Positions 9,985 to 32,361 of a stretch of DNA of 64,000 nt are shown in pieces (position 1 is the first letter of the stretch; each line of letters begins with the position of its first letter). The DNA lies in the NCBI GenBank assembly GCA_964648665.1, contig CAZYOA010000008.1, positions 550 to 64,549 of the forward strand, given 5' to 3'. Under the pieces are notes generated by a model. It had not been told where the DNA came from. It did not search any database and saw only the letters and a list, made by a program, of their open reading frames with translations. This DNA comes from an uncultured Planctomycetales bacterium (lineage in GTDB: Bacteria > Omnitrophota > Gorgyraeia > Zapsychrales > Aceulaceae). The position numbers were made by a program, and so were the translations under genes.

Positions 9985-10974
9985 TTATGTTAATTTACAA
10001 GATAATTTTAAAGAATCGCCTTTTTGGAAAGAAAGTCGTCTTCTTGCAGACCTGATAATTAAGCGGGCATTATGGATAGTCACTTTTATTTTTTCATCAT
10101 AAATAACATAATTCTTCTTTAGCGCAACAGGCGTAAAACTCGGCATAATAACATTACATCCAGCATCCAAAGCTTTTCTTTGAGCCTTGTTGCCTCCCAG
10201 AGTTGTCAAAGCAGTCGTCACCGGCATATGTGCATTTCTCGTCACAATCCTTGTTAGTGCAATTATTTTTAAAACAAGAGAGATATCTGAAAACTTATGA
10301 CTTGCCAATGGCGTTTGACTCTGCGGCATAAAAGGGCCAATGCCAATCATATCAGGTTGAAAATCTTGATAAAACAAGATATCTTGAACAAGATGCTCTA
10401 GCCTCTGACCCGGAAGACCAACAATATTTCCAGAGCCAACCTGAAATCCAATCTTTCTTAAATATTCTAAAATCTTCAGACGCTTCCTAAGAGATTGACC
10501 CGGATGAAAACTCTTATAAAGATTCTCATCTGCCGTTTCATGCTTTAAAAGATATCGGCTTGCCCCCGCATCATAAAAAGCTTTATAATCATCAAAAGGT
10601 CTTTCACCTAAAGAAAGAGTAACCGCCAAATCAGGACATTGTTTCTTTATTTTTCTTATAACGCTTGAAAACTTATTCCTTGTATAGAAAAGATCATCAC
10701 CAGATTGCAAAACAACCGTTTTAAAACCTTTTGATCGAACATTAGCTGCAGCTCTTACAATTTCAACATCCTTTAATCGCATCCTTTGGGCTTCTTTGTT
10801 TTCTCGACGCAAGCCACAATACAAGCAATTACGAACACAATAAGATGAAAATTCAATCAACCCTCTTAAAAAAACTTTATCCCCACAAAACTGTTTACGA
10901 GTTTGATTTGCTTGATTAAAAAGAACTTTTGAATCTTTATCTTTTAAGAATTCAAAGATTTCATTTCTTGTCAT
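9985..10974 (-). CDS. hydE: [FeFe]-hydrogenase maturase HydE (radical SAM)
   Basis: CVRNCLYCGLRR CX3CX2C motif, about 330 aa, directly after hydG. The track start (11040) is TTG inside hydG. ATG at 10974 (MTRNEIFEFL) lies 4 nt after the hydG stop, with AAGG upstream. Confidence 0.85.
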   Translation of the reverse strand: MTRNEIFEFLKDKDSKVLFNQANQTRKQFCGDKVFLRGLIEFSSYCVRNCLYCGLRRENKEAQRMRLKDVEIVRAAANVRSKGFKTVVLQSGDDLFYTRNKFSSVIRKIKKQCPDLAVTLSLGERPFDDYKAFYDAGASRYLLKHETADENLYKSFHPGQSLRKRLKILEYLRKIGFQVGSGNIVGLPGQRLEHLVQDILFYQDFQPDMIGIGPFMPQSQTPLASHKFSDISLVLKIIALTRIVTRNAHMPVTTALTTLGGNKAQRKALDAGCNVIMPSFTPVALKKNYVIYDEKIKVTIHNARLIIRSARRRLSFQKGDSLKLSCKLT

Positions 10975-10978
10975 AGCC

Positions 10979-12475
10979 TTAGAGATAAAGATCTCTTTCT
11001 CCTTGTTCAACTCTCTGATAAAGACTATAAAACTTATCAAATATCTCGGGCATAAACTCTTTGACCTCTTTAATTTCTTTTTTTAAAACAGGCTCTGCAA
11101 CTTTTCTTGTTTCCTCGCTTGAAAAATCATCAAGCCATTCTTTAAATGTTAAAATTGCATTAATTTTACAAAACTTTCCCTCTTGTCCGCTACGCAAAAG
11201 ATCCATAATACATTTTCCTGTGCGTCCGCATCGATATCCAGCCGTACAAAAAGAAGTGATGTATCCCATCTTTGCAAATTCACGGATAACCTCATCGAGA
11301 TTTCTTGTATCTCCTAAAATAAATTGCTGTTTCTTCTCTTCCTGGTCAGAATAAAACTCCGAATATCCGCCAATACCAATTTTTGTCGATGCATCTGTTT
11401 GCGTCACACCCAAAGAAATAGCTTCTTTCCTAATTTTAGCGCTTTCTCGAGCCGTAATAATCATCCCTGTAAAAGGAATCGACAACCGCACAACAAGAAT
11501 CAATTTCATAAAATCTTTATCAGAAACAAGGTAAGAAGAATCTTTATTTATTGTAGCCCCTAAGGCTGGCTCTAATCGAGGAAATGAAACGGTATGAGGA
11601 CCAATTCCAAATCTTTTTTCAAGTTCTCGCGCATGATACACCAAACCTAAAACCTCAAATTTCCAATCATACAAACCAAAAAGAGCTCCAATGCCAACAT
11701 CGTCAATGCCCGCCTCAAAAGCACGATGCATACAATAAAGCCTCCAGTCATAATCGCCTTTAATCGTTTTTGGTGGATGAACCTTTGTGTAAGTCGGCTG
11801 ATGATAGGTTTCCTGAAAAACTTGATATGTTCCGATACCAACTTCTTTTATACTTCTTAAATCATCAATACAAAACGCTGGCGCATTAACATTAACTCGT
11901 CTAATGCTTCCAATCCCTTTTCTCGTCTGCACATTAACCTCATAGATAGCCTTAAGACTATCTATAATATAATCAACATCATTCTTAGGATGCTCTCCAT
12001 AAACAGCAATCAATCGCTTGTGCCCAATCTTTCCGGCTAAAACCTCAACCTCTTTCTTTATTTCATCCATAGAAAGAACTCTGCGTTGAGCCTCAACATT
12101 ATCTGTCTTAAATCCACAATATTGACAATTATTAACACAATAATTTCCCATGTAAAGCGGAGCAAATGTAACAATTCGATTATTGTAAACTTTCTTTTTA
12201 ATTCGCATTGCCGCTTTTTTCATTCGATCAATTAAATCCGGATTTTCAACGTACAAAAGCGCTGCTGTCTCTTCAGGCGTTAAATTCTGAATTGATTCTG
12301 CTTTAACTAAAATTTTCTCAATATACTCTAGATCTGGATTCTTTGCCTTTTCAAGAGTCTTTAAGATTTCTTTTTCAGATATAAAATTCTTACCATCAAC
12401 AAGATACTTATTAATTTCATCTCTCTTAATTCTTTGATCTATCCAATTATTATTATTATTTTCTATATTGCTCAT
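10979..12475 (-). CDS. hydG: [FeFe]-hydrogenase maturase HydG (radical SAM tyrosine lyase)
   Basis: CVNNCQYCGF radical SAM motif plus C-terminal Cys cluster (CTAGYRCGRTGKC). ThiH-like length. ATGA overlap with the hydF stop. Confidence 0.9.
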   Translation of the reverse strand: MSNIENNNNNWIDQRIKRDEINKYLVDGKNFISEKEILKTLEKAKNPDLEYIEKILVKAESIQNLTPEETAALLYVENPDLIDRMKKAAMRIKKKVYNNRIVTFAPLYMGNYCVNNCQYCGFKTDNVEAQRRVLSMDEIKKEVEVLAGKIGHKRLIAVYGEHPKNDVDYIIDSLKAIYEVNVQTRKGIGSIRRVNVNAPAFCIDDLRSIKEVGIGTYQVFQETYHQPTYTKVHPPKTIKGDYDWRLYCMHRAFEAGIDDVGIGALFGLYDWKFEVLGLVYHARELEKRFGIGPHTVSFPRLEPALGATINKDSSYLVSDKDFMKLILVVRLSIPFTGMIITARESAKIRKEAISLGVTQTDASTKIGIGGYSEFYSDQEEKKQQFILGDTRNLDEVIREFAKMGYITSFCTAGYRCGRTGKCIMDLLRSGQEGKFCKINAILTFKEWLDDFSSEETRKVAEPVLKKEIKEVKEFMPEIFDKFYSLYQRVEQGERDLYL

Positions 12476-13725
12476 TTCAACGCCTTTTTTTTAACCTGTT
12501 GATAAATATTAAAACTCTCAGAAAAAGGCTCAAGAACTCTTTCCAAAACACCCTGTAAAAAAGAAATGCATACTCCATAATTTGTTACCGGAACTCCTAT
12601 TTTCTTAGCATAATACATGCGCCTTAAGGTTTCTTTTCGAGTGATCATGCAAGATCCACATAAAACCGCTAATTTATATTCAGATAAATCCTCTGGATAA
12701 TCTCGTCCCGAACAAACATCAATCTTAAGATCTGCTTTTGTATACTCTTTAAGCCATCGAGGAATTTTAACGCGTCCAATATCATCTTCTACCGCATGAT
12801 GACTACACGCTTCTGCAATTAAAACTCGATCGCCATCTTTAAGTGAATCAATTGCACAAACACCTTCAACCATCTGATTAAGATCACCTTTAAGACGTGC
12901 AAAAACAATAGAAAATGTTGTACATTTAACATCGCTAGGCGTCCCTACAACCATTCGATCAACAACCTGAGAATCACAAACAACAATATCTGGAGGTGTC
13001 TTCAGCCTATCTAAAACAGACAAATACTCGCTCTCCTTAACGATAAGCGCAGAAGAATCATGATCAAGAGCATCTCGAATAGTTTGGACTTGAGGCAAAA
13101 TAATTCTTCCCTTAGGAGCTTCTAAATCAATCGGAACAATCAACACCGATAATCCTCCCTTAGGCATCAAATCCCCAATCAACGCCGAAGGTTTAATAAA
13201 ATCTTCAGGACAACATTCAATCAATTGCTCTTTAAGCAACAAAACATATTCATTTCTTTTTTCAAGATTTACACTTGAGCACAAAACAACTTTTTCAGTC
13301 TTTTTTCTTAAATCTTTAACAAAATCATCCGAAGGCTGCTGAATATCAATCTTGTTTACAACAATAATCAATGGCATGTTTTGTTGCTTTGCCTGATCAC
13401 AAACATAATCTTCAAATTCTGTCCAAACTTCAGACTCAACAATCAAAACAACAACATCGCTTCGATCAAAAATCCTTTTTGTCTTCTTAATACGCAATTC
13501 TGAAAGATCAGATGAATCGTCTAGCCCTGCTGTATCCAAAAATACAACAGGCCCAATCGGAAGAAGCTCCATCGCTTTTTCAACAACATCTGTTGTTGTT
13601 CCAGCAATCTCTGACGTGATCGCAACATTCTGCCCCACCACAACGTTAAGAAAACTTGACTTTCCTACATTTGTTCGACCAAAAAGACCAATCTGAAGCC
13701 TTAATGATTTCGGTGCCGTCTTCAT
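12472..13725 (-). CDS. hydF: [FeFe]-hydrogenase maturation GTPase/scaffold HydF
   Basis: G1 GRTNVGKSS, G3 DTAG, G4 NKID. C-terminal cluster motif CSHH...46 residues...LCGSC. Confidence 0.9.
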   Translation of the reverse strand: MKTAPKSLRLQIGLFGRTNVGKSSFLNVVVGQNVAITSEIAGTTTDVVEKAMELLPIGPVVFLDTAGLDDSSDLSELRIKKTKRIFDRSDVVVLIVESEVWTEFEDYVCDQAKQQNMPLIIVVNKIDIQQPSDDFVKDLRKKTEKVVLCSSVNLEKRNEYVLLLKEQLIECCPEDFIKPSALIGDLMPKGGLSVLIVPIDLEAPKGRIILPQVQTIRDALDHDSSALIVKESEYLSVLDRLKTPPDIVVCDSQVVDRMVVGTPSDVKCTTFSIVFARLKGDLNQMVEGVCAIDSLKDGDRVLIAEACSHHAVEDDIGRVKIPRWLKEYTKADLKIDVCSGRDYPEDLSEYKLAVLCGSCMITRKETLRRMYYAKKIGVPVTNYGVCISFLQGVLERVLEPFSESFNIYQQVKKKALK

Positions 13726-13728
13726 CAG

Positions 13729-13986
13729 TTAATCCTGCTCTAGTTTTCCTAAGCCCGATTTTACAAAAACACCATCAATAGCTCCAAGCTGTCCTGTCAA
13801 TGCTCCAACTTCATCCGTATTGGCATCTACAATCAATGTCATAACACTTAAGCCTCTCTCCTTATACGGAATTCCCATGCGACCAACAAACATTGCAGCA
13901 TGTTCATGCAAAACATGATTTACATCTTCAGCACTCTTGTCTCTATTTTCAATGATAATTCCAACAAATCCTAACCGTTTCTTCAT
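13729..13986 (-). CDS. TM1266-family putative iron-only hydrogenase system regulator (ACT-like)
   Basis: About 85 aa, GFVGIIIENRDKSAEDVNHVLHEHAAMFVGRMGIPY...LIVDANTDEVGALTGQLG. This family typically sits next to hydEFG. ATG at 13986 is preceded by AGGAGG. Confidence 0.7.
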   Translation of the reverse strand: MKKRLGFVGIIIENRDKSAEDVNHVLHEHAAMFVGRMGIPYKERGLSVMTLIVDANTDEVGALTGQLGAIDGVFVKSGLGKLEQD

Positions 13987-14008
13987 CACATCCTCCTTTT
14001 TAAAAATA

Positions 14009-14111: not shown

Positions 14112-14495
14112 TTACTGTATATATTGTTCTACGATCTTTAAAAAATACTCTGGGTCAATCGGCTTTTCTAATATTGCCTTAACAGGCAAAAGTGTTTCAC
14201 CGGTTTCATAATCAAAAGCAAAATTAGAAGCTTTTTTAATACCGGAAACAATAATAACAGGAATATTTTTTGTTGATTCATCAGATTTTAATTTCTGGGA
14301 AATATCGAATCCTTTCGAATCATGCTCCATCATAATATCAAGAGAAATAAGGTCTGGTTTCTCGCTTTGAGCTTTTACAAATCCCTCTTCGCCACCATTA
14401 GCAGACACAACTACAAAATCTTTAGCTTCCAAAAGAACTGTCACCGCTTGTATGAAATCAGGGTCGTCATCAACAAGCAAAACTTTCTTAGACAT
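14112..14495 (-). CDS. Stand-alone response-regulator receiver (CheY-like) protein
   Basis: VLLVDDDPD, phospho-acceptor PDLISLDIMM, IPVIIVSG, LEKPI. No output domain. Close paralog of the REC domain of 18410..19297. Confidence 0.85.
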   Translation of the reverse strand: MSKKVLLVDDDPDFIQAVTVLLEAKDFVVVSANGGEEGFVKAQSEKPDLISLDIMMEHDSKGFDISQKLKSDESTKNIPVIIVSGIKKASNFAFDYETGETLLPVKAILEKPIDPEYFLKIVEQYIQ

Positions 14496-14554: not shown

Positions 14555-16300
14555 CTACTTTCGATATTCCGCACGCGGAATATATTTTGTATGCAAAAGA
14601 TGATGAGCCTTCTCGCCTAAAGGCTTACCAAGAAAATCTTTATACAACTTTTGAATATATGGATTATCATGTGAACATCGAACACTTTTCGCAGCATCCT
14701 CATCATAAAGCCCTTTAGCTCGAGCGGTTCTAACCTCATCATTAATCATATAAGGTTGTCCACCACCTCCAACACATCCTCCAGGACAAGCCATAACCTC
14801 AACGAAATGATAAGGCAAAGGCTCATTATTCTTTATCGCATCGCGTATTCTATCTAAAACAGAAACAACATTTGCAAGACCATGCGCAACAGCAATTTTA
14901 ACCTCTGTTCCTTTTATATCAATCGATGTCTCTTTGACTCCTTCAAGCCCTCGAACATCTTTAAAATCAAATTCTTTCAAATTTTCTTTTGTAATAACAG
15001 CATATGCTGTACGCAATGCGGCTTCCATGACCCCGCCTGTTGCGCCAAAAATTGTTCCTGCACCAGAATACTCGCCTAATAAAAGATCCGGCTCTTCATC
15101 TGGAAGATTATTAAAATCAAGTCCAGCTTGTCGAATCATACGAATAAGCTCACGCGTCGTAATAACCACATCAACATCCTGATATCCAGAAGCAAACATC
15201 TCTTCCGATCTAGAAATTTCATACTTCTTAGAGGTACATGGCATAATTGAAATAACTTTTATTTTCTTAGGATCAATCTTTTTTTGCTCAGCATAATACG
15301 TCTTAGTTAAAACACCTAAAATCTCATGCGGAGACTTAGTTGATGAAAAATGCTCAATCATGTCTGTATAAAACTTTTCCATAAAATCAACCCAAGATGG
15401 ACAACATGTTGTAATCATCGGCAAAACGCCTTTTTTATGAACAAAGCGTTCGACAAATTCATTCCCCTCCTCCATGATTGTCACATCAGCTGCAAAATTA
15501 GTATCGAAAACTGTATCAAATCCTAAACGTCTCAAAAGAGCATAAAGTTTTTTTGTTAGATTTACGCCTGGCTCATATCCAAAGCCTTCACCAACAGCAA
15601 CGCGAACAGCTGGAGCAATCTGAACAACACAATGTATCTCAGGATCTTGAAGCGCCTCCCAAACTTTGGCTGTATCATCTTTTTCAAAAATAGCTCCTGT
15701 TGGACAATGCGCAGAACACTGACCGCATCGAACACAAGGAGATTCACCCAAAACAATATCTCCCGCTGGTGAAATGCGCGTATTCACACCTCTTTCTAAG
15801 AAAGATAATGCCCAAACAGCTTGTGTCGATTGACAAACTTCAACACATCGGCCACATTTAATACATTTTGAAGGATCTAAAACAATTGTATTCGTTGTAT
15901 TATCTTTTGGGATTTCTCTAACAATCTTTTTAAATTGTTCTTCGCGAATTCCAAAATCAGAAACAAGAGTTTGAAGTTCACAATTATTATTTCTTCCACA
16001 CTTCAAGCAATCATTAGGATGATCTGACAAAATAAGCTCTATGACAGTTTTGCGTGTCTCAACAATCTCTGGATCATGCGTAATAATATCCATGCCTTCT
16101 TCGAAAGGCGTACAGCACGATCTCAGCATCTTGCTTGTCCCCTTAACACGAACAATGCATATACCGCAAGCTGCAGAAGGACTAACATCTGAATGATGGC
16201 AAAGAGTTGGAATCTTAACCTGAACTTTTTTCGCTGCATCAAGAATGGTCGTCCCTTTCTCGACCTCAACTGATATTCCGTTTATTATTCCTTTAATCAT
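14555..16300 (-). CDS. hndD: [FeFe]-hydrogenase catalytic subunit (HndD/HydA, group A3-like)
   Basis: N-terminal 2Fe-2S and multiple 4Fe-4S Cys motifs. H-cluster signatures TTCCPSW, MPCTSKKYE, EVMACPGGCVGGGGQP. Confidence 0.95.
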   Translation of the reverse strand: MIKGIINGISVEVEKGTTILDAAKKVQVKIPTLCHHSDVSPSAACGICIVRVKGTSKMLRSCCTPFEEGMDIITHDPEIVETRKTVIELILSDHPNDCLKCGRNNNCELQTLVSDFGIREEQFKKIVREIPKDNTTNTIVLDPSKCIKCGRCVEVCQSTQAVWALSFLERGVNTRISPAGDIVLGESPCVRCGQCSAHCPTGAIFEKDDTAKVWEALQDPEIHCVVQIAPAVRVAVGEGFGYEPGVNLTKKLYALLRRLGFDTVFDTNFAADVTIMEEGNEFVERFVHKKGVLPMITTCCPSWVDFMEKFYTDMIEHFSSTKSPHEILGVLTKTYYAEQKKIDPKKIKVISIMPCTSKKYEISRSEEMFASGYQDVDVVITTRELIRMIRQAGLDFNNLPDEEPDLLLGEYSGAGTIFGATGGVMEAALRTAYAVITKENLKEFDFKDVRGLEGVKETSIDIKGTEVKIAVAHGLANVVSVLDRIRDAIKNNEPLPYHFVEVMACPGGCVGGGGQPYMINDEVRTARAKGLYDEDAAKSVRCSHDNPYIQKLYKDFLGKPLGEKAHHLLHTKYIPRAEYRK

Positions 16301-16324: not shown

Positions 16325-18064
16325 TTATCTTCTAATTGCTGAAAATCGACACACTTCAAAACAGCGTCCACATTGAATACATTTTTCCTGATCAATAACA
16401 TACGGTTGATCTTTGCTTCCTGTAATCGCGTCTACAGGACAATTTCTAGCGCAAAGTCCACATCGCTTACATTTTTCTTCAATAACTGCATAACTAAATA
16501 AATCTGAACATTTTCCAGAAGGACATCGCTTGTCTAAAATATGAGCAAGATATTCTGCTTCAAAAAATTTCATTGTTGACAAAACAGGATTTGCGGCTGT
16601 CTGACCTAACCCGCAAAGAGACGCTTTTTGCATACATGCTGAAATAACTCGTAATTTTCTTAAATCATCCAGCTCTCCTTTTCCTTCTGAAATCTTTGTC
16701 AAAAGACCTAAAAGCTGTGTCCCTCCAATTCGACAAGGCGCACATTTTCCACATGATTCTTCAACGCAAAATCCTAAATAAAATTTTGCAATATCAACCA
16801 TACAATCCGTTTCATCCATAACAATCATTCCACCAGACCCCATGATTGATCCCAATTTTTGAAGACTTTCATATTCAACTGGTGTATCAAAGAATTCCTC
16901 CGGAATAACACCTCCCGAAGGTCCACCTGTTTGAATCGCTTTAATCTTTTTCCCATCTAAAACACCACCCCCAATATCAAAAACAATCTCACGCAACGTT
17001 GTTCCCATGGGAACTTCAACTAATCCTGAATTTTGAACTTTTCCAGTTACAGCAAAAACTTTCGTTCCTTTAGATGTTTCTGTTCCAATCGAAGAAAACC
17101 ATTTTCCTCCTTTTAAAAGAATAATCGGAATGTTCGCCAATGTCTCAACATTATTAATAACCGTAGGCTTACCCCATAACCCTTTAATTGAAGGATACGG
17201 CGGTCTCGGCCTCGGGCATCCTCTTTTTCCTTCGATAGAAGCAATCAAAGCTGTTTCTTCTCCGCAAACAAAAGCGCCAGCACCAAGTCGAATTTCTAAA
17301 TCAAAATCAAATCCTGAGCCAAAAATATTCTCACCTAAAAGTCCATACTTTCTAGCTTGATTAATCGCCAAATTAATACGTTTAATCGCCAAAGGATATT
17401 CTGCACGAATATACAAAAACCCTTTTGTTGCACCAATCGCATAACCTGAAATCATCATTCCCTCTAAAACAGAATGAGGGTCTCCTTCTAAAACGCTACG
17501 ATCCATATACGCTCCTGGATCTCCCTCGTCAGCGTTACAAATAACATATTTTTGATCAGACTCAACACCTTTAGCAAAATTCCATTTCATCCATGTTGGA
17601 AATCCTCCACCGCCTCGTCCTCGCAACCCACTGATCTTCATCTCATCAATAACGAAATCCTGAGATTTCTTTGATAAAATCTTTTTAAACGCTTGATATC
17701 CATCTTGACAAATATAATCATCAATATTTTCTGGGTCAATAACTCCACAATTTCTCAACACAACTCTTAATTGTTTATTATCAATCTTGAAAACAAGCTC
17801 TTGTATAACTTTGTTCTTTTTTAATGTTTTTTCAATAATCAAATCAAGATCTTCTTCTTTGACATTTGCATAAACAACATTTTCAGGAAGAATTTTAAAA
17901 ACGATACCTTTATTATAAAGACCTATATCTGCGGCCCTGACCACCTGGATAGAATCAGCAAGATTCTGATCTCTAAGCTTTGAAATCAAAATGTCATAAA
18001 AATGCTTTGTTTTTTTATTTTCTTTTGTATCTTTAATTAAAACGATTTTCTTGTATCTAGACAT
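16325..18064 (-). CDS. hndC: NuoF-like flavoprotein subunit of the hydrogenase (HndC/HydB), NAD(P)/FMN-binding with C-terminal 2x[4Fe-4S]
   Basis: GRGGGGFPTWMKW, CGKCAPCR, C-terminal CKRCGLCARNCP and CIQCGRCFEVC ferredoxin motifs. Confidence 0.9.
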   Translation of the reverse strand: MSRYKKIVLIKDTKENKKTKHFYDILISKLRDQNLADSIQVVRAADIGLYNKGIVFKILPENVVYANVKEEDLDLIIEKTLKKNKVIQELVFKIDNKQLRVVLRNCGVIDPENIDDYICQDGYQAFKKILSKKSQDFVIDEMKISGLRGRGGGGFPTWMKWNFAKGVESDQKYVICNADEGDPGAYMDRSVLEGDPHSVLEGMMISGYAIGATKGFLYIRAEYPLAIKRINLAINQARKYGLLGENIFGSGFDFDLEIRLGAGAFVCGEETALIASIEGKRGCPRPRPPYPSIKGLWGKPTVINNVETLANIPIILLKGGKWFSSIGTETSKGTKVFAVTGKVQNSGLVEVPMGTTLREIVFDIGGGVLDGKKIKAIQTGGPSGGVIPEEFFDTPVEYESLQKLGSIMGSGGMIVMDETDCMVDIAKFYLGFCVEESCGKCAPCRIGGTQLLGLLTKISEGKGELDDLRKLRVISACMQKASLCGLGQTAANPVLSTMKFFEAEYLAHILDKRCPSGKCSDLFSYAVIEEKCKRCGLCARNCPVDAITGSKDQPYVIDQEKCIQCGRCFEVCRFSAIRR

Positions 18065-18065
18065 T

Positions 18066-18413
18066 TTAGTTCACCTTTATATTAAAAATATGATCATTCA
18101 ATAAATATTTTCCTGATGCATGTTTATCAATAATCTTAATCGCTGTTTCTTCATCCACTCCCCCATAGACAACCGTTGGCATTCCTTGAACGCAAACTTC
18201 AACCAATGGTTCAGCATGGCACATTCCAGAACATCCACATTGTTCAATTGCAATTTCTGCCTTGCGCTTTTCTTTTTCTTCAACGAGTGTCTTAAAAACT
18301 TTATCAGCGCCAGCGGCAATACCGCATGTGCTCATTCCAACTTTAATCCAATCGCCTTTTCTTTTTTGCCCTTGACTTTTAATTTGATCTAAATTTACTT
18401 TTTCATTTTTCAT
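18066..18413 (-). CDS. hndB: Small thioredoxin-like [2Fe-2S] subunit (HndB-like)
   Basis: 115 aa, MSTCGIAAGA...CGCSGMCHAEPLVEV Cys pattern. Position between the hndA-like and hndC-like genes. Confidence 0.75.
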   Translation of the reverse strand: MKNEKVNLDQIKSQGQKRKGDWIKVGMSTCGIAAGADKVFKTLVEEKEKRKAEIAIEQCGCSGMCHAEPLVEVCVQGMPTVVYGGVDEETAIKIIDKHASGKYLLNDHIFNIKVN

Positions 18414-19297
18414 TTTGAAGAAATCTCCTTCTCAACCGTCTCTTTAGAATATTCCGATAAAATATCCATAATTTCATTTCGTTTAACTTTTCCATATGTT
18501 TTATTATCAATCGTCATAACCGGGGCAAGACCACAACACCCTAAACAGCGAACAGATTGAAGATGAAAAAGGCCATCTTTTGTTGTTTGCCCTTCTTCAA
18601 CATGAAGAATGTTCTTAATCTCAGTAACAATGTCTGCTGCCCCCTTTAAATAACAAGCTGTTCCCATACAAACTGAAATTAAATGCTTTCCAGGAGGATC
18701 AATCTTAAAGTAATTGTAAAACGTAATTACCTCATAAATTCTGGCTAAAGGAATATCTAGAATTCGAGAAAGTTCAAAAGATACATCTCTAGGCACATAG
18801 CCATAATGATTCTGGATTTCATGCAAAACCATAACAAGATTACCTTTCTTTCCTTTCCATTTCTCTGCTAAAGCATCCAGCTCCCCAACAACCTTACGAT
18901 GTTCTTCTCCAGTTTTTCGAATATAAGCACGAGCCATCTTTAATAATATTTCAGGCTTAACAGGCTTTTCTAAAACAGCCTTTACCGGAAGCGCTTTTTC
19001 ATTTGGCTTCAAATCAAAAGGAAAATTAAGTTCTTTTCGAGCTCCCGTAATCAAGACAACAGGGATATCTTTAATCGCAGCATCATTAGCCATAGCTTTA
19101 GCCGTTTCTGCTCCTTCTGTTTTATACGTCATCATCATATCAAGAAAAATTAAATCCGGAGATTCATCTTTTACTTTCTGAAAACCTTCTTGACCATTCG
19201 ATGCAACAACAACATCGTATCCACTAGCTTCCAGCAAAAGCGATGTCGCCTCCGTGTAATCATGATCATCATCAATAATAAGTATTTTATTTCTCAT
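18410..19297 (-). CDS. hndA: Fusion protein: N-terminal response-regulator receiver domain + NuoE/HndA-like [2Fe-2S] hydrogenase subunit
   Basis: Residues 1-125 form a complete REC (ILIIDDDHD, PDLIFLDMMM, IPVVLITG, LEKPV). Residues about 150-295 are NuoE-like (LHEIQNHYGYVP, SVCMGTACYLKG, VRCLGCCGLAPVM). Single uninterrupted ORF with ATG start and 4-bp overlap with hndB. Confidence 0.85.
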   Translation of the reverse strand: MRNKILIIDDDHDYTEATSLLLEASGYDVVVASNGQEGFQKVKDESPDLIFLDMMMTYKTEGAETAKAMANDAAIKDIPVVLITGARKELNFPFDLKPNEKALPVKAVLEKPVKPEILLKMARAYIRKTGEEHRKVVGELDALAEKWKGKKGNLVMVLHEIQNHYGYVPRDVSFELSRILDIPLARIYEVITFYNYFKIDPPGKHLISVCMGTACYLKGAADIVTEIKNILHVEEGQTTKDGLFHLQSVRCLGCCGLAPVMTIDNKTYGKVKRNEIMDILSEYSKETVEKEISSK

Positions 19298-19312: not shown

Positions 19313-21151
19313 CTATACTTTTTTAATCCTAAACTTAAATGAATTACCACTCGCCTTTGGTTCAACCCAAATTCGCCCTCCATGCTTTTCTATGATCTCT
19401 TTTGTAATAAAAAGTCCGATCCCTGTTCCTTTTACGGTTTCCATCCCCCTGTAAATAATACGAGAAAACTTTTTAAATAATTTATCGACATCGATAGATT
19501 CAATCGGTTGACCATCATTATAAACTTCCACTTCAATTTCATCGCCTTTTTCTTCTAAAGAAATTCGTATTTGTCCTTTAACTTTCGCATATTTAATAGC
19601 ATTACTCAAAAGATTATTAGAAACAATCTGCAAGAGTCCCGCATCACCTAAAATTTTAACACCTGAATCAAGATTATTAATAATCTCAATATCTTTCTCC
19701 TTGGCTTGTTGCAAAAAAGATTCAATTGTAATATCAAAAACATGCTCTTTAACTAAAAGTTCATTCTTAGTCAGCTGAAGCTCTGCTTTTTCAATACGAC
19801 TTAAGTTTAAAAAGTTTTTTACTGTTACTGTTAAATAATCTAAATTTCGAGACACAGAAGCAAGTGTCTTTTCTTGCTTTTCATTAATTTCACCTAAAAT
19901 CTTATTCTTCAAAAGATATGTATTTAAAACAATCGAAGACAGAATGCCTTTAAGTTCGTGCGAAACAAACCCGATAAGATCAAGATAACGCGTATTTAAG
20001 ATCTCAACCTTTTCTTTCGACTTCTTTAAGCTTTCCTCTCTTCTAGCAAGCTTTCCAGACATATCGTTAAAAGAGGAAATAAGTTCATTAAGCTCCTGAA
20101 TAGATGTTTTTTCAGTAATTTTACTATCTAAATTTCCTCTAGAAATCTTTCGGGTTGTAACCAATACTTCATTTAACGGTCTCGTAATCGATCCTGTCAG
20201 AATATAGAAAAAGACTCCTGCTAACAAAGCTGTTAAGAAAATAATCATAAAAAAAGCAAGGAATGTATTTCGTCCCATAATTAAAAATGGTTTTTCTAAA
20301 ATACCTACATATAAAATCCCAATGATATTTCCTTTTATGTTCTTAATCGGCTCGTAGGCCGTAATATACCAATCAGTCACAACAAAAGCTTTATCAAACC
20401 ATTTCTCGCCTTCTTTAACAACCCGTCTATAAACTTCATCTGATACGCGTGTTCCAATCGCTCTTTGACCTTCAGCGTCTAGAACATTAGTTGCAATACG
20501 AACATCATTTTGGAAAATTGTTACTGTTCCAACAGGCTTATCTTCATAAAACTTATTTTCAAAAACAAAATCAGAAATGCTATCAATAAGCTCAAAATTT
20601 TGATTAATAATCCGTCCACCATACAAGACTTTTACAACTTTTTCTGAAGAATTTAAAATCGGACGAGCATGCTCAATGACCATCAAATCACGAACAACCA
20701 TTTTCTCAGTCGGACTAGCCTTTAACGTTGACTTAATAATAATCGATGCATCTTCTCTCTCTGGAACAATTTCTCTAAATTCATCACTTGAAATAATCCG
20801 ATATCCACCAACAGGCTTCTTTGAATTAAGAGCCTTTAAAACAATCTCATTATTTAGTTGAAGAGCATCCGCTTGATTTACTAATTTCAAATAATCTAAG
20901 CCCGCTTTGCCTTCAACCTCTTTAAGATTCTGACTCGGATCCATAAGATCAATGGCTAAGCTAGCAAGCTGCAACTGTTGAGCGCATACCGTATTGACAA
21001 TTCTTAAATCATTTCTAATACGATCTTGTGCTTGCTCAAAAATGTATTTCTTAATAAAAAAGAATCCAAAAATAGACATACACACAACTAAAAATAAAAT
21101 GACGTATGATAAAGAAATTAAGATTTGAGTTCTAAGATTTATATTTTTCAT
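19313..21151 (-). CDS. Sensor histidine kinase (TM - periplasmic Cache-like domain - TM - HAMP - HisKA - HATPase)
   Basis: Two TM segments flank an approx 260-aa extracytoplasmic domain. HAMP (TRPLNEVLVTTRKISRGNLD), H-box FVSHELKGIL, N/G boxes (NLLSNAIKY, GTGIGLFITKEI). The track start 21175 is TTG. First ATG at 21151 (MKNINLRT). Confidence 0.85.
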   Translation of the reverse strand: MKNINLRTQILISLSYVILFLVVCMSIFGFFFIKKYIFEQAQDRIRNDLRIVNTVCAQQLQLASLAIDLMDPSQNLKEVEGKAGLDYLKLVNQADALQLNNEIVLKALNSKKPVGGYRIISSDEFREIVPEREDASIIIKSTLKASPTEKMVVRDLMVIEHARPILNSSEKVVKVLYGGRIINQNFELIDSISDFVFENKFYEDKPVGTVTIFQNDVRIATNVLDAEGQRAIGTRVSDEVYRRVVKEGEKWFDKAFVVTDWYITAYEPIKNIKGNIIGILYVGILEKPFLIMGRNTFLAFFMIIFLTALLAGVFFYILTGSITRPLNEVLVTTRKISRGNLDSKITEKTSIQELNELISSFNDMSGKLARREESLKKSKEKVEILNTRYLDLIGFVSHELKGILSSIVLNTYLLKNKILGEINEKQEKTLASVSRNLDYLTVTVKNFLNLSRIEKAELQLTKNELLVKEHVFDITIESFLQQAKEKDIEIINNLDSGVKILGDAGLLQIVSNNLLSNAIKYAKVKGQIRISLEEKGDEIEVEVYNDGQPIESIDVDKLFKKFSRIIYRGMETVKGTGIGLFITKEIIEKHGGRIWVEPKASGNSFKFRIKKV

Positions 21152-21773
21152 TTTTCGTTCTCTGGACTCCAGCAAAATAGTTAACCACCTCTAGCTCAAG
21201 GCGAACATTAACGTTGTTAACAAAGAAACTTTCTGGAACTTTTAAATTAATTGGAGCAAAATTTAAAGCACCTTTCATCCCTAAAGAAACCATTTTATCA
21301 ACAACCTGTTGAGCTGCAAAATAAGGAACAGCAATAACACCGACCTTAATTTTATTCTTCTTAACAAAATTATCAAGCTTATCTATAGAAAAAATTGAAA
21401 CACCCACTTCTTGCCCATACTTCAAAGGATCAATATCAAACGCAGCAGCAATATGAATCTTTTCTTTCGAAAACCCATCATATTGCATCAAAGCTCTTCC
21501 AATATGACCGGCACCAACAATAATAACATTTTGAATCTTATCTTTTCCCAAAAGTGTATTGATTTGGTCAATAAGATCATCAACAATATATCCACCTCTT
21601 TTATTCCCAGAAATATTAAGCAAAGAAAAATCTTTTCGAACTTGAGCAGAATTAGACCCTACAACATTAGCCAAATGACCTGAGAAAACCTTTTCAGAGC
21701 CTAATTCTTTCAATCGATAAATTGCATCTCTGTAACGATAAAGCCTAGAAACAGATTGTTTTGTGGTTGCCAT
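21132..21773 (-). CDS. rex: Redox-sensing transcriptional repressor Rex
   Basis: SRLYRYRDAIYRLKELG winged helix, Rossmann VIIVGAGHIGRAL. The track start 21806 is GTG and would lie upstream of the predicted -10. ATG at 21773 (MATTKQSV) preferred. Confidence 0.85.
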   Translation of the reverse strand: MATTKQSVSRLYRYRDAIYRLKELGSEKVFSGHLANVVGSNSAQVRKDFSLLNISGNKRGGYIVDDLIDQINTLLGKDKIQNVIIVGAGHIGRALMQYDGFSKEKIHIAAAFDIDPLKYGQEVGVSIFSIDKLDNFVKKNKIKVGVIAVPYFAAQQVVDKMVSLGMKGALNFAPINLKVPESFFVNNVNVRLELEVVNYFAGVQRTKNEKYKS

Positions 21774-21806
21774 ATTATTATTCTCTAATTCACTAATTAA
21801 GAGCAC

Positions 21807-21859
21807 AATATACCATACTGACTATATTTGTCAACACAATAAAGTGAAAATAATCACAA
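21807..21859 (-). promoter_or_regulatory. Sigma70-like promoter plus candidate Rex operator upstream of rex
   Basis: Minus strand TTGACA (21829-21834), 16 nt, TATATT (21807-21812). Just upstream, TTGTGATTATTTTCACTT (21842-21859) matches 11 of 14 specified positions of the Rex consensus TTGTGAAnnnnTTCACAA. Confidence 0.35.
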
Positions 21860-21930: not shown

Positions 21931-22134
21931 TTAAAGCGGCTTTACAGCCTTCGCCTTAAACCCCTTATCGTCTTTTTCTAAATCAAATTCAACGTCTTGT
22001 TCTTCTTTTAATGTTTTGTACCCTGACTCCTGCTGAATCTCACTAAAATGAACAAATGCATCTTCACCAGACTCAGAAGTAATAAACCCGTAACCCTTCT
22101 GGGCATTGAACCATTTTACTTTACCTTTTGTCAT
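21931..22134 (-). CDS. Cold-shock protein (CspA family)
   Basis: 67 aa, [16 protein letters not shown] (RNP1) and DAFVHFS (RNP2). Confidence 0.9.
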
Positions 22135-22431: not shown

Positions 22432-23487
22432 TCAACAAATCCGAGGCAGTTGCGATGATGAAAGCATATGAATAATGCGCTTAGTCCCAATTTGACTATT
22501 AGCGACAACCATTGCTTTATCACTTTTTGAGACATGGCCAATAATACTTGCATCTTTAGAAAGATTATTCGATTTTAAAAGATCTAAAACTTTTATTGCT
22601 TCACATTCTGGAACAAAACAAACAAATCGTCCTTCATTAGCAACATATAAAGGATCAATTCCTAAAACTTCACACGCCGCGCGGACATCTTCTCTTACAG
22701 GAATTTCATTTTCAGTAATTTCCATCTTGAATTTAGAAGTTTTTGCAATCTCAACAAGGGCTGTGCCCAACCCCCCTCGTGTTAAATCACGCATACAATG
22801 TATTGTAACCTTTGAATCTAAGAGCTGCAATACTAAAGAAGACAAAGACGCACAATCACTTTCAATAACATTTTCAAAAGTTAAGCCTTCACGCGTTGCC
22901 ATAATCGCCATTCCATGGCGAGCAATATCTCCACTTAGAATAATGCAATCGCCATCTTCAATCGAAGCTGGCGAAATATTCTGATCATGCTCAACAATTC
23001 CAACACCCGATGTATTAATAAAAATTCCATCAGCTTTTCCTTTGTCCACAACCTTAGTATCTCCTGAAACAATTTGAACATTGGATTCTTCAGCAGCTTT
23101 TTGCATAGAATTCACAACTCGCCAAAGAACATCCATAGAAAGCCCCTCTTCTAAAATAAATCCAACTGTTAAGAAGAGCGGTCGCGCTCCACACATTGCA
23201 AGATCATTAACTGTTCCTTGAATCGATAAAGATCCAATGTCGCCTCCGGGAAAAAATATTGGATCAACAACATAGGAATCTGTTGTCATTGCAATTTTGT
23301 TCCCTGGAAGTTCACTCACAGCTCCATCATGAGACTGATCAAGATGTTCATTCTTGAAAACCTTCCGAAACATTTTATCAATCAGCTGATTCATCAAAGT
23401 GCCCCCACTCCCATGAGCAAGCATAACATAAGGATAATCCGATACCGGAATTGGACAACTTGGTAAATTATATTCTTTTTTCTTCAT
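22432..23487 (-). CDS. hypE: [NiFe]-hydrogenase maturation protein HypE
   Basis: AIR-synthase-like fold motifs ([15 protein letters not shown]) and the diagnostic C-terminal PRIC. Confidence 0.9.
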
Positions 23488-24572
23488 TATTCTCTCTTAT
23501 AGCGATAGTAAGCGCTACAAGCCCCTTCGGATGAAACCATAGGAGCCCCTAACGGATGATCAGGTCGACACTGTTTTCCAAAAGCATCACATTCATTAGG
23601 CTTTTTAATTCCTTGCAAAACTAACGCACTAATACACTCTTTTGGTTCATTTGCTGTAATATTGCTGACATCAAATATTTTCTCTGCATCAAACTTTGAA
23701 TAATCCTTCTTTAAAATAAGTCCACTTCGAGGAATGCTACCAATTCCCCTCCACTTCCTAGAAGAAACTTCAAAAACGTGATCAATAATTTCTTTTGCCA
23801 CAATATTTCCTTCTCTGCGCACGGAACGAACATATTGATTTTCAACTTCATATCGATTTTCTTCAAGCTGTTTAACGCACATATAGATACCTTGTAAAAT
23901 ATCAAATGGTTCGAATCCGGTTACCACAATCGGTGTCTTATATTTCGCGGCTAAAGGCTCATATTCTTCATAACCCATAATCGTACAAACATGCCCTGCT
24001 GCCAAAAAACCTTGTACTTGATTTTTATCTGAAGATAAAATCATTTCAATCGCAGGTGGAACTAAAACATGCGAAACTAAAAGAAAAAAATTATTAATAT
24101 TTTGCTTTTTAGCTTGATATGCAGCCATAGCGTTTCCTGGCGCAGTCGCTTCAAATCCAACAGCAAAAAAAACAACTTTTTTATCAGAATTCTTTCTAGC
24201 AACTTCAAGTGCATCCATTGGAGAATAAACAATGCGAACATCTCCCCCTTCAGCCTTTACAGAAAGTAAATCTTTTTGGCTACCAGGAACTCTTAGCATA
24301 TCTCCGAAAGAACAAAAAATAACATCGTCTCGAGAAGCAATTGCAATCGCACGATCAACAGACTCTAAGGGTGTAACACAAACAGGACATCCAGGACCAT
24401 GGACGAGAGTAATCTCTTTTGGAAGAAGTTCATCAAGGCCAAATCGAATAATTGAATGTGTCTGCCCACCACAAATCTCCATGATTGTCCATGATTTCTT
24501 TGTTATCTGCTTAATCGCCTGAGCAACCCCTTGAACACTTTCTTTGTTTCGATATTCATCAACAAATTTCAT
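23487..24572 (-). CDS. hypD: [NiFe]-hydrogenase maturation protein HypD
   Basis: [24 protein letters not shown] motifs. 1-nt overlap with hypE. Confidence 0.9.
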
Positions 24573-24815
24573 TTATTCGCCTTCATATAACTCATCAATT
24601 TCACTTAAATACTCTAAAGTTTTCACAGCTTCCTCTTCATCCACTTGGCTTATAGCAAATCCGGCATGAACAATAACATAATTTCCAACCTTTGCATCAG
24701 GTACATAAGCCAAGTTAACTTCTTTTTGAATACCTGAGAAATCAACTTTTCCTTTTCTCTCTAATGCATCATTTCCTTCAATATTTATAATTTTTCCAGG
24801 AACAGCTAAACACAT
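24573..24815 (-). CDS. hypC: [NiFe]-hydrogenase maturation chaperone HypC
   Basis: Canonical N-terminus MCLAVPGKI at ATG 24815, preceded by AAGGAAAAG. The track start 24863 is TTG and adds 16 non-conserved residues. Confidence 0.85.
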   Translation of the reverse strand: MCLAVPGKIINIEGNDALERKGKVDFSGIQKEVNLAYVPDAKVGNYVIVHAGFAISQVDEEEAVKTLEYLSEIDELYEGE

Positions 24816-24887
24816 TTTCTTTTCCTTTTTTTTATTAAAACATACCATTATCTTTTCAATCAAAAAATGCTGAAGAAATTTAGTATA

Positions 24888-27143: not shown

Positions 27144-27165
27144 AGCACGCAACGTTTCTAAGCAA

Positions 27166-27606
27166 TCAAATAAATTTCTTCTCTAAAAAACATTTCTTAA
27201 TAAACTCGATAGCATCTAAAAGATTATTTTGAGCTTTATCTGAAAGCTTTTCTCCAAAATCATTAAACTCATATCCACGGATACCCAAAACATATGCCTT
27301 CGTATCGGCCTTGAATAAATCATGCGCTAAAGCTAGCACAGCTTCAGGTTCGATACTATGTGTTGAAAAACTTATATCGGATTTAGGTTGAATCTCTTTA
27401 AAGAAAAATGGCTCTTGACCTTTGAGTGCTGCATCCGCAAAGATAACAACATCGTGCTCTGAAACACTTGAGGCATCTTCAACAGTCAGCTGATAATCAG
27501 AATCAACAGTTACGTCAGGGAGATTGAATTTTTCGATCGCATCAGCTAAGGCAGGACCCAATCCATCATCAAGTCGTCCAGGATTGCCATAACCAATCAA
27601 CAGCAT
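27166..27606 (-). CDS. hoxW: Hydrogenase maturation endopeptidase (HoxW/HycI family)
   Basis: MLLIGYGNPGRLDDGLGP N-terminus and a conserved His region. Located directly after hoxH. The track start 27615 is TTG. Confidence 0.8.
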   Translation of the reverse strand: MLLIGYGNPGRLDDGLGPALADAIEKFNLPDVTVDSDYQLTVEDASSVSEHDVVIFADAALKGQEPFFFKEIQPKSDISFSTHSIEPEAVLALAHDLFKADTKAYVLGIRGYEFNDFGEKLSDKAQNNLLDAIEFIKKCFLEKKFI

Positions 27607-27624
27607 TTTACTCAAAGCAAAAAA

Positions 27625-29067: not shown

Positions 29068-29085
29068 GTTCAAGCTCCTGTCTTA

Positions 29086-29631
29086 TTAATCATATTTAAT
29101 TAACTCGTATGGTAAATCAAGCGGCTTATTATTTAAAAGAGCCACTAATGCTTCCCAGATTGTATCTGCTGATGGTGGACATCCTGGAAGATGATAATCC
29201 ATCTTAACAACTTCATGACATGGATACACTCGATCTAAACAAAGAGGAATTTCTTTATCTGATGGAATTTTTCCAGATGGGTTATAAACCGTTGGCCCAT
29301 TTAAATAAGCTTCATCCAAGCATTCTTTTAAAGGAATGCTGTTTCGCATCGCAGGAAGACCACCGTTAATCGCACAATCTCCAAGAGAAATCAAAATATC
29401 GCAATTCTCTCTGAAATATTTTAGATTATGAACATTTTCCTCGTTAGCACATCCACCTTCAATTAAACCTACAAGACATCGACCTGTAAATTTTTTAAGA
29501 TCATCAATAGGTGACTTGTCGAAATCGACAAGTTCAATAAGTTTTAAGATGCGCTCATCAATATCTAAAATAGACATATGACATCCGAAACATCCTGCTA
29601 AAGAAGCTGTTGCAATTTTTGGTTTTGCCAT
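29086..29631 (-). CDS. hoxY: [NiFe]-hydrogenase small subunit, group 3d (HoxY)
   Basis: 181 aa, ASLAGCFGCHMS proximal-cluster motif, GGC, HLPGCPP. Confidence 0.85.
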   Translation of the reverse strand: MAKPKIATASLAGCFGCHMSILDIDERILKLIELVDFDKSPIDDLKKFTGRCLVGLIEGGCANEENVHNLKYFRENCDILISLGDCAINGGLPAMRNSIPLKECLDEAYLNGPTVYNPSGKIPSDKEIPLCLDRVYPCHEVVKMDYHLPGCPPSADTIWEALVALLNNKPLDLPYELIKYD

Positions 29632-29657
29632 TTTTAAATTCCTCTTATTTTTAAAAC

Positions 29658-30368: not shown

Positions 30369-30378
30369 ATTTCCTTTT

Positions 30379-32196: not shown

Positions 32197-32361
32197 AAAA
32201 AACACCTTTTATTTGAAATGGTTTAATTTTTTATATAATCACGTCGAGAAATAAACATCTTGGTGTGCTTAGATCGTGAAAACTGGAACAATTAAAGATA
32301 TTATACATTTTTTCTTGTTTCCGTGCAAAGCATTTATTAAAAATGTTAATATTTCCGAGAT

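Follow-up and report, generated by a model that had tools for sequence, protein, structure and literature searches.

What does a phosphorylatable receiver domain do on an electron-transfer subunit of a hydrogenase? The question arises from a 64,000-nucleotide stretch of DNA (contig CAZYOA010000008.1 of assembly GCA_964648665.1, positions 550 to 64,549 of the forward strand; here called the window) from an uncultured bacterium that GTDB places in the Omnitrophota. One of its genes, here named REC-hndA, encodes a CheY-like receiver (REC) joined in frame to a NuoE/HndA-like [2Fe-2S] subunit of a putative electron-bifurcating [FeFe]-hydrogenase. A previous sequence-only reading of the window had noticed this fusion and suggested that a two-component pathway might act on the hydrogenase complex itself and not only on its transcription. 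We analyzed the gene, its relatives in public sequence data and their gene neighborhoods. The answer we favor, with somewhat more than even confidence, is that REC-HndA is a genuine hydrogenase subunit which is phosphorylated by the kinase encoded upstream and controls assembly or gating of the complex, with a second, stand-alone receiver (REC2) resetting the switch.

The fused gene and its parts are arranged as follows.

18410..19297, minus strand: REC-HndA, CheY-like receiver plus NuoE/HydC/BfuC-type [2Fe-2S] subunit, 295 amino acids (open reading frame, translation, Pfam)
18935..19285, minus strand: receiver domain, residues 5-121 (Pfam, alignment to PhoP and CpxR)
18860..18955, minus strand: predicted continuous helix, residues 115-146 (AlphaFold, pLDDT about 82-90)
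18449..18874, minus strand: NuoE/HydC-like domain, residues 142-283 (Pfam, PDB sequence matches, Foldseek)

The 295-codon open reading frame (ORF) reported at 18410-19297 is intact and unbroken, starting with an ATG at 19297 that is preceded by an AGGGA-type ribosome-binding site. All receiver and cysteine motifs quoted by the sequence-only reading are present, and translation and Pfam analysis show both the receiver and the NuoE/HndA module to be complete. Absent from that reading were the strand, REC2 at 14112-14495, a rex gene at the operon head and sub-clades of the fusion that lack the acceptor aspartate. The Response_reg profile (PF00072) matches residues 5-121 with 59.2 bits (cut-off 30.2, E 5e-16) and is covered from position 1 to 109 of 111. 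The phospho-site comprises an acidic pocket (D9/D10/D11), the acceptor D53 (nucleotides 19139-19141), T84 and K111, found within the motifs IIDDDHD (residues 7-13), PDLIFLDMMM (47-56), VVLITG (80-85) and LEKPV (109-113). In the alignments, functional residues of B. subtilis PhoP fall opposite D10/D11, D53 and T84, and the conserved lysine of CpxR falls opposite K111. By sequence definition, the receiver is a phosphorylatable REC. The NuoE half matches 2Fe-2S_thioredx (PF01257, IPR002023) over residues 142-283 with 161 bits (E 2e-47) and contains the [2Fe-2S] ligands Cys210, Cys215, Cys251 and Cys255 in the motifs CMGTAC (residues 210-215) and CLGCC (251-255). Its closest PDB sequences are HydC/BfuC chains (7t2r_C, 8a6t_C, 9n5u_C and 7q4v_C). 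A Foldseek search of the PDB likewise aligned the NuoE half with HydC/BfuC/NuoE chains (probability 1.00, TM-score normalized to the target of about 0.6); only this half was matched and no PDB chain spanned both halves.

The fusion is common in public metagenome data. Searching 5.8 billion proteins returned 2991 matches as clusters at 90% identity. The best 117 clusters of the 2991 matches (57-76% identity) all combine PF00072 with PF01257 and carry the names Candidatus Omnitrophota/Omnitrophica, Ca. Gygaella and Ca. Aureabacteria. Database labels for the fusion are 'NAD(P)H-dependent oxidoreductase subunit E', 'NADH-quinone oxidoreductase subunit E' or 'response regulator'. At least eight further fused clusters were found at 32-37% identity among 50%-identity representatives, one of them from Thermodesulfovibrionales. 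The fusion recurs in NCBI, JGI, ENA and Logan assemblies, with a conserved linker, well above anything that chance would produce. A scan of GTDB genomes with the whole protein retrieved mostly unfused NuoE proteins, in which the motif VCMGTACY is widespread; fused hits were limited to two loci (L005 and L006). A 578-residue member of the 50%-identity representatives (P0152) contains two Response_reg and two 2Fe-2S_thioredx stretches, which suggests either a tandem REC-NuoE-REC-NuoE duplication or a mis-assembly. In the Thermodesulfovibrionales contigs (L002-L004, P0220), a REC-NuoE protein with Glu in place of D53 is encoded after two genes resembling sulfite/nitrite reductases (NIR_SIR, dsrAB-like) and before a NuoF-like gene. 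The contigs stop before any catalytic partner, and the enzyme served here may be a Bfu member that is not a hydrogenase.

An alignment of 132 rows (128 fused proteins and four REC-REC proteins) was used to assess conservation. K111 is present in all 132 rows, D9 in 127, T84 in 121 and D53 in 119, and the four cysteine ligands are invariant in 128/128 fused proteins. A degenerate receiver, which the earlier reading had named as a possible objection, is not what the alignments to PhoP and CpxR or the 132 rows reveal. The closest relative (L169) is syntenic with the window and differs by mostly synonymous changes. Ratios of nonsynonymous to synonymous substitution rates (dN/dS) between the two are 0.02 (REC), 0.11 (linker) and 0.03 (NuoE part), rough values since dS is near saturation. 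Purifying selection acts as strongly on the REC half as on the NuoE half. A 175-residue protein from the L169 contig (P0118, 89% identical) had been a candidate for an unfused relative and was rejected, since the contig contains the full 295-codon fused frame and the short form is a start-codon miscall. In this entry (GCA_028693815.1, JAQUUP010000022.1), hndA was annotated from an internal methionine (MARIYVRK...), leaving the 120-codon REC region unannotated. Start-codon miscalls of this kind will conceal the fusion in database counts.

An AlphaFold model of REC-HndA (m83f4ecbe4883, 86 sequences) was obtained with a predicted local distance difference test score (pLDDT) of 82.8 and a predicted TM-score (pTM) of 0.60. 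The modeled REC consists of strands 1-5 and helices 1, 2, 3 and 5. At the position of alpha4 (residues 85-106) the model has a conserved loop of lower confidence, which includes a 5-residue insertion. In the predicted helix 115-146, alpha5 of the REC continues as the helix that opens the four-helix bundle of the NuoE part. The NuoE part is modeled as helices 136-194, forming the bundle, followed by a thioredoxin-like beta-alpha-beta arrangement at 205-283. The linker is conserved as K-T-G-x-x-H-R plus W147, with G130 retained in 94, H133 in 95 and W147 in 123 of the 132 rows.

REC-hndA is part of a minus-strand operon with the order rex–HK–REC-hndA–hndB–hndC–hndD–REC2–TM1266-like–hydF–hydG–hydE, where HK denotes a histidine kinase. 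The members that bear on the role of the receiver are listed here.

21132..21806, minus strand: Rex-type redox-sensing repressor at the operon head (Pfam Put_DNA-bind_N and CoA_binding)
19313..21151, minus strand: membrane sensor histidine kinase (Pfam)
18066..18413, minus strand: HndB, small thioredoxin-like [2Fe-2S] protein (weak PF01257 match, 19.9 bits, below cut-off)
16325..18064, minus strand: HndC, NuoF-like flavin mononucleotide (FMN)/NAD(P)H subunit of BfuB type (Pfam, PDB matches)
14555..16300, minus strand: HndD, [FeFe]-hydrogenase catalytic subunit (Pfam, PDB matches)
14112..14495, minus strand: stand-alone receiver REC2, 127 amino acids (Pfam, alignment)

The kinase gene at 19313-21151 adjoins REC-hndA as previously described, its stop (19313) lying 15 nt ahead of the REC-hndA start. 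The hndABCD order also stands, as do the 4-bp overlap (ATGA) of hndA and hndB and the 1-nt gap between hndB and hndC; the gap between hndC and hndD, earlier given as 1-2 nt, is 24 nt. hndC follows 350 nt downstream of REC-hndA in the same operon, and the two genes are likewise linked in every related locus with enough sequence. REC-hndA is the sole NuoE-like gene of the operon, and the other NuoE-like domain of the annotated neighborhood is fused to an upstream Hox NuoF-like gene. REC-HndA must thus be the structural partner of HndC and not an accessory regulator.

HndC contains Complex1_51K, SLBB and NADH_4Fe-4S domains and two Fer4 domains, the latter representing two C-terminal [4Fe-4S] ferredoxin motifs (Pfam). 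BfuB proteins are defined by the same inventory, namely an FMN domain, SLBB, NADH_4Fe-4S and a C-terminal 2x[4Fe-4S] ferredoxin domain (PMC9304861). HndC matches bifurcating HydB over its full length (7t2r_B, 1e-220; 7q4v_B, 3.5e-218), including the C-terminal CxxCxxCxxxCP motifs. Its N-terminus aligns to the N-terminal domain of 7t2r_B, yet the cysteine residues are missing there. HndB and HndC form one fused protein in L001 and many other loci, and the separate HndB with its Cys motifs probably supplies the B5 cluster in place of the HydB N-terminal domain, as it does in the Hnd enzyme of D. fructosovorans. HndD contains Fe_hyd_lg_C (305 bits, H-cluster), Fe_hyd_SSU, Fer2_4, NADH-G_4Fe-4S_3 and Fer4 domains and is closest in the PDB to HydA1 of A. 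woodii (8e-176) and T. kivui (8e-169). It carries catalytic and Fe-S domains only, a PAS domain being absent (Pfam). In terms of subunit and domain composition, the complex is a Bfu/HydABC-type (group A3) hydrogenase, with the caveat regarding B5. The hydrogenase is probably electron-bifurcating or confurcating, in agreement with the bifurcating type proposed earlier, given that bifurcating HydB and HydA of solved structure are the best matches for HndC and HndD.

The kinase consists of a transmembrane segment, sCache_3_3 (Cache_3-Cache_2), a second transmembrane segment, HAMP, HisKA and HATPase_c, with the H-box FVSHELKGIL. When its sensor domain was compared with PDB sequences, only two chemoreceptor sCache domains were matched (1e-6). 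An H-box of the form SHE(L/F)KG is found in 28/28 orthologous kinases, so that the acidic residue after the histidine is kept and His+4 is Gly. In HisKA proteins, the acidic residue is needed for kinase activity and Thr/Asn at His+4 for phosphatase activity (Willett and Kirby 2012, PMC3510030). The kinase would thus dephosphorylate its receivers poorly, because Gly replaces Thr/Asn at His+4. The more distant kinase of L088 keeps a canonical AHEINNP. REC2 is a paralogue of the fused REC (45% identity over 127 residues, gapless) without an output domain (Pfam). Three REC domains are found in the window: the fused one, REC2 and a PilZ-REC 20 kb away beside its own kinase. The insertion in the alpha4 region is common to the fused REC and REC2 and absent from this third REC. 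Because the kinase is without the phosphatase residue, REC2 is most likely a phosphate sink or competing partner.

Further evidence for a functional link comes from comparing loci. We annotated 80 metagenome loci from a scan with the REC and linker alignment, plus further contigs, using profiles of the window proteins. After collapsing, 41 non-redundant fused proteins remained, 31 of them with enough upstream sequence to be judged. Where the acceptor Asp is intact, an sCache kinase is encoded directly upstream in 20/24 non-redundant loci; where Asp is replaced (by E, N, S or G), this is the case in 0/7. Pseudo-receivers form several sub-clades, with D53N/H (P0107, P0111-P0120, P0068), D53E (P0002, P0078, P0220) or D53S/G/C (L131-L137). 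The kinase is missing in every assessable case, and the substitutes are either phosphomimetic Glu or neutral residues. In two further D-to-E loci (L006 and L134), rex immediately precedes the fusion gene, with no space for a kinase between them. A second REC of the REC2 type is found in 12/14 loci with the kinase vs 0/10 without (p = 6.7e-5), and 20 loci with close unfused relatives of HndA have neither kinase nor REC. The clearest example is L087, whose fused protein is 74% identical to that of the window and carries D53E and D10N. This locus is without rex, kinase and REC2 and keeps the wider context, namely the PilZ-REC, a TonB receptor, an ADP-forming acetyl-CoA synthetase and a cold-shock gene. 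The first three of these occur in the order of the window, with a histidine-kinase-like catalytic domain at the corresponding end. Taken together, the comparison shows that kinase, fused REC and stand-alone REC were gained and lost together. It follows that kinase, receiver(s) and hydrogenase represent one evolutionary module. Among the annotated genes of the Omnitrophota-type modules inspected, no DNA-binding REC and no Hpt protein was found.

Receivers and NuoE proteins also meet in other arrangements. Free REC genes that belong to the subfamily of the fused receiver lie directly ahead of NuoE genes in some related loci. One recurring pattern is Rex-REC|NuoE|HndC|HndD-HK-REC~NuoE... (pattern B: L090, L094, L099, L108 and L141), and another is Rex-HK-...-NuoE-REC-REC-NuoE-HndB-HndC-HndD (pattern C: L011, L119, L121, L122, L126, L128 and L129). 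The association of REC and NuoE thus exists in both split and fused form and with more than one hydrogenase type. In both patterns, the unfused NuoE behind the free receivers belongs to a second [FeFe]-hydrogenase cluster, which has either a short NuoF-like gene and a long HydA or a NuoF-like gene of ~1050 residues. On a 2545-nt contig of Candidatus Susulua stagnicola (L009), the gene for an sCache kinase precedes no more than a short REC-like fragment (E 8e-4) and, in another frame, a NuoE ORF, which could be a frameshifted or decaying fusion.

How phosphorylation might reach the enzyme can be considered in light of published structures. Cryo-EM studies describe HydC as an N-terminal four-helix bundle near the HydB/HydA interface followed by a mobile C-terminal [2Fe-2S] domain, whose swing between HydC-in and HydC-out positions places cluster C1 near the FMN or near B2/B3/B4 and is proposed to gate the low-potential ferredoxin branch (PMC10021017, PMC8880783, PMC9304861). 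In the NiFe-HydABCSL dimer, two HydC subunits are in mutual contact (PMC8880783). Given this published motion of HydC, a REC on its bundle appears well placed to pair with a neighboring REC, to dock or release mobile domains, or to shift the HydA/HydB interface. We propose that the Cache domain of the kinase would sense an extracytoplasmic signal and thereby set the phosphorylation state of D53 in REC-HndA. The resulting change at the beta5-alpha5 face would travel along the alpha5 helix into the HndA four-helix bundle at the HydB/HydA interface, where the helix might act sterically or through REC-REC pairing between protomers. The consequence would be a change either in how the complex assembles or in the in/out movement by which the [2Fe-2S] domain gates the low-potential ferredoxin branch. 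Rex would set transcription according to NADH/NAD+ as a slower layer, and the receiver would switch the hydrogenase within seconds on top of it, and REC2 would reset it by draining phosphate or by competing for it. The more specific version, in which an extracellular cue acting through the Cache kinase decides within seconds whether electrons from NAD(P)H and ferredoxin confurcate to H2 and REC2 provides the reset, is plausible to us but falls somewhat short of even confidence. The proposal of direct control made by the sequence-only reading is strengthened by the co-variation of Asp and kinase, by the lack of a DNA-binding output and by the helix leading into the gating subunit, although it is still a mechanism that we infer.

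Several observations weigh against direct control of the enzyme through phosphorylation of the receiver. In about one in six fused proteins, E, N, H, S, G or C takes the place of the acceptor Asp. Such lineages imply that the REC has a structural function independent of phosphorylation as well and that the hydrogenase can work without the switch; they weaken the case for the switch being essential, not for its existence where Asp and kinase are kept. Four loci have an intact Asp and no adjacent kinase, although among these L112 has DDN, L116 has K-to-R and T-to-S changes, and in L088 the kinase is two genes upstream. The statistical association of Asp and kinase (Fisher p = 1.3e-4) is a figure that ignores phylogeny. 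In the distant L088, the same kinase type occurs together with a sigma54-type DNA-binding regulator, a transcriptional output in at least one lineage. As to structure, the part of HydC that bears the REC is the N-terminal bundle, which is static, whereas it is the [2Fe-2S] domain that moves. The conserved Gly130 inside the predicted linker helix may break it, and the relative placement of the REC and NuoE domains in the model is uncertain (pTM 0.60). Finally, all members of the fusion come from uncultured organisms.

Other explanations were also considered. One that we regard as improbable, though worth keeping in mind, is that the pathway is transcriptional and ends at a regulator encoded elsewhere, with both receivers buffering or relaying phosphate in a Spo0F-like manner and having no effect on the enzyme. 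Single-domain receivers often work in phosphorelays, a PAS-GerE protein is encoded nearby in L001, and L088 encodes, between its sCache kinase and REC-NuoE, a REC-AAA+ regulator of the sigma54 type and a REC-REC protein. The Omnitrophota-type modules contain, as stated above, neither a DNA-binding REC nor an Hpt protein among their annotated genes, and Rex is already a dedicated transcription regulator in the operon. This explanation also gives no reason for a fusion to a structural subunit to persist at a dN/dS of 0.02. Signaling could also run in reverse, with the NAD(P)H/[2Fe-2S] module of the hydrogenase as sensor and the redox or conformational state of HndA setting the phosphate uptake of the REC, so that REC-HndA would be a redox-dependent sink that governs how far REC2, the true output, is phosphorylated. 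Two paralogous receivers served by one kinase would fit this arrangement, sinks matter for a kinase without the phosphatase residue, and there is a published precedent for an Fe-S-coupled receiver feeding back on its kinase (PMC7078487). We consider it unlikely, to about the same degree as the transcriptional pathway: 2/14 kinase loci have the fused REC but no REC2, there is no pointer to any target of REC2, and it is the fused REC that tracks the kinase most tightly. Reverse signaling would nevertheless be compatible with direct control and does not exclude it.

Less probable still is a purely structural pseudo-receiver, where the REC serves as an assembly, dimerization or docking module, phosphorylation is irrelevant and the adjacency of the kinase incidental. 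The sub-clades with N/H/S/G/C or E at position 53, which retain both the domain and the hydrogenase genes, are what such a module would look like. All five phospho-site residues are retained in the clade of the window, however, and where the Asp has been lost the kinase and REC2 are gone too, the opposite of an incidental neighborhood. An assembly or frameshift artefact joining a response-regulator gene to hndA, a concern raised by the sequence-only reading and apparently supported by P0118 as a seemingly close unfused relative, has practically no probability left. It is already refuted by the full fused frame in L169 and by at least 117 independent clusters which share the fusion and its conserved linker. 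We continue to prefer direct control of the hydrogenase by the phosphorylated receiver.

The operon can be compared with several known systems. In subunit set and order it is alike to HndABCD of Desulfovibrio (Solidesulfovibrio) fructosovorans and HydABC(D) of Thermotoga maritima, Acetobacterium woodii and Thermoanaerobacter kivui, and the best PDB matches of all three large window subunits are bifurcating HydA/B/C chains. Rex control of HydABC/Hnd-type operons is a known theme as well. What sets the window operon apart is that it includes a complete two-component system, while no receiver is found on any solved or surveyed HydC/BfuC. A survey of the Bfu family based on a tree of 1558 BfuB sequences never mentions response regulators or kinases (PMC9304861). 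Compared with a classical two-component system, the window has a HisKA kinase and an adjacent receiver, but no recognized output domain and no Thr/Asn at His+4. Control of a fused catalytic domain by REC phosphorylation is established for the CheB methylesterase, the PleD/WspR diguanylate cyclases and RpfG. In its proposed working REC-HndA comes closest to these proteins, with an N-terminal phosphorylatable REC joined via alpha5 to an effector, an adjacent kinase and an output at the post-translational level. It differs in that its partner is an electron-transfer subunit of a multi-subunit redox complex, not a self-contained enzyme, and in that the modeled REC is without a regular alpha4, so that the alpha4-beta5-alpha5 output surface would be altered.

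Signaling proteins inside hydrogenase gene clusters are also known from sensory [FeFe]-hydrogenases (HydS/HfsB, PAS), which adjoin bifurcating operons in Firmicutes and Thermotogae together with genes for Ser/Thr kinase-phosphatase proteins or histidine-kinase-like ATPases. There, sensing falls to a hydrogenase homologue that is separate from the enzyme and non-catalytic, and transcription is the presumed output. The window operon shares with them the location of signaling proteins within the cluster; unlike in these group C systems, the catalytic complex itself bears the receiver, on its NuoE-like subunit, and the sensor is an extracytoplasmic Cache domain. A DRTGG / HATPase_c_2 / Fe_hyd_lg_C+FeS cluster of the sensory-hydrogenase type lies downstream in L088. 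Single-domain receivers that act on protein targets or as sinks include CheY (flagellar motor), DivK, and CheY1/CheY2 of Sinorhizobium. REC2 resembles them in that it has no output domain and shares its kinase, which is without the phosphatase residue, with a second receiver. It differs from them in having no chemotaxis or cell-cycle context and a partner receiver that is part of a metabolic enzyme.

The remaining features of the operon surround the genes discussed so far.

21842..21859: weak Rex-box-like palindrome AAGTGAAAATAATCACAA, 3 mismatches (18-mer search)
13729-13989, minus strand: TM1266-like ACT protein (Pfam)
12472-13725, minus strand: HydF (Pfam)
10979-12475, minus strand: HydG-like protein (Pfam)
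9985-11040, minus strand: HydE-like radical SAM protein (Pfam)

The downstream block (9985..13989, minus strand) comprises the maturation genes for the H-cluster. At the other end of the operon, rex occupies an equivalent position in L001, L089, L091, L102, L105, L107, L109, L111 and L169. The Rex-box-like palindrome is found ahead of rex, just upstream of a TTGACA -35-like hexamer. Rex-box-like matches across the window number 15 vs 10 +/- 3 by chance, a slight excess, and the palindrome is only a hint of a Rex site. A cold-shock-domain gene (21931-22134) lies just upstream of the rex region, a position kept in L169 and L087.

An NAD(P)-linked NiFe hydrogenase island (22432-33045, minus strand) is located directly upstream of rex.

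32362-33045, minus strand: HypB-like GTPase
30379-32205, minus strand: NuoE-NuoF fusion
29658-30425, minus strand: HoxU-like protein
29086-29631, minus strand: small subunit
27625-29073, minus strand: NiFe large subunit
27166-27615, minus strand: 149-residue ORF without a Pfam match, which may be an endopeptidase
22432-27152, minus strand: HypF, HypC, HypD and HypE

Two NAD(P)H-coupled hydrogenases thus make the window a hydrogen-metabolism island, and just one of them bears a receiver. A separate signaling pair, also on the minus strand, is formed by a 1220-residue histidine kinase (40221-43883) and the PilZ-REC (39461-40171). The next genes, likewise on the minus strand, encode a TonB-dependent receptor (36627-38636) and an ADP-forming acetyl-CoA synthetase (34348-36456).

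The sequence-only reading had left room for the architecture being already common and described. It is indeed widespread in metagenomes, and it has gone unremarked in the open-access papers searched: no description was found there of a REC+NuoE/HndA/HydC fusion, of hydrogenase regulation in Omnitrophota or of the combination PF00072+PF01257, although subscription journals may differ. For response-regulator censuses, the best 10 of 43 literature matches likewise contained nothing on REC+NuoE, as far as titles and abstracts go. Bifurcating hydrogenases set the redox balance of fermenters and syntrophs. To our knowledge, their known regulation is transcriptional (Rex, HydS-type sensors), and their catalytic gating is thought to be purely internal, depending on nucleotide binding and cluster reduction. 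If our proposal holds true, REC-HndA would give flavin-based electron bifurcation its first gate that is both post-translational and controlled by a signal, and cells could override the internal gating logic of the enzyme from outside. A subunit of a redox complex would then represent a new output class of response regulators. D53 mutants, BeF3- and the natural D-to-E and D-to-N variants would offer a handle to trap conformational states of these complexes. We know of almost no experimental physiology for the Omnitrophota, and a fusion family this abundant in the phylum would provide a biochemical entry point to their hydrogen metabolism.

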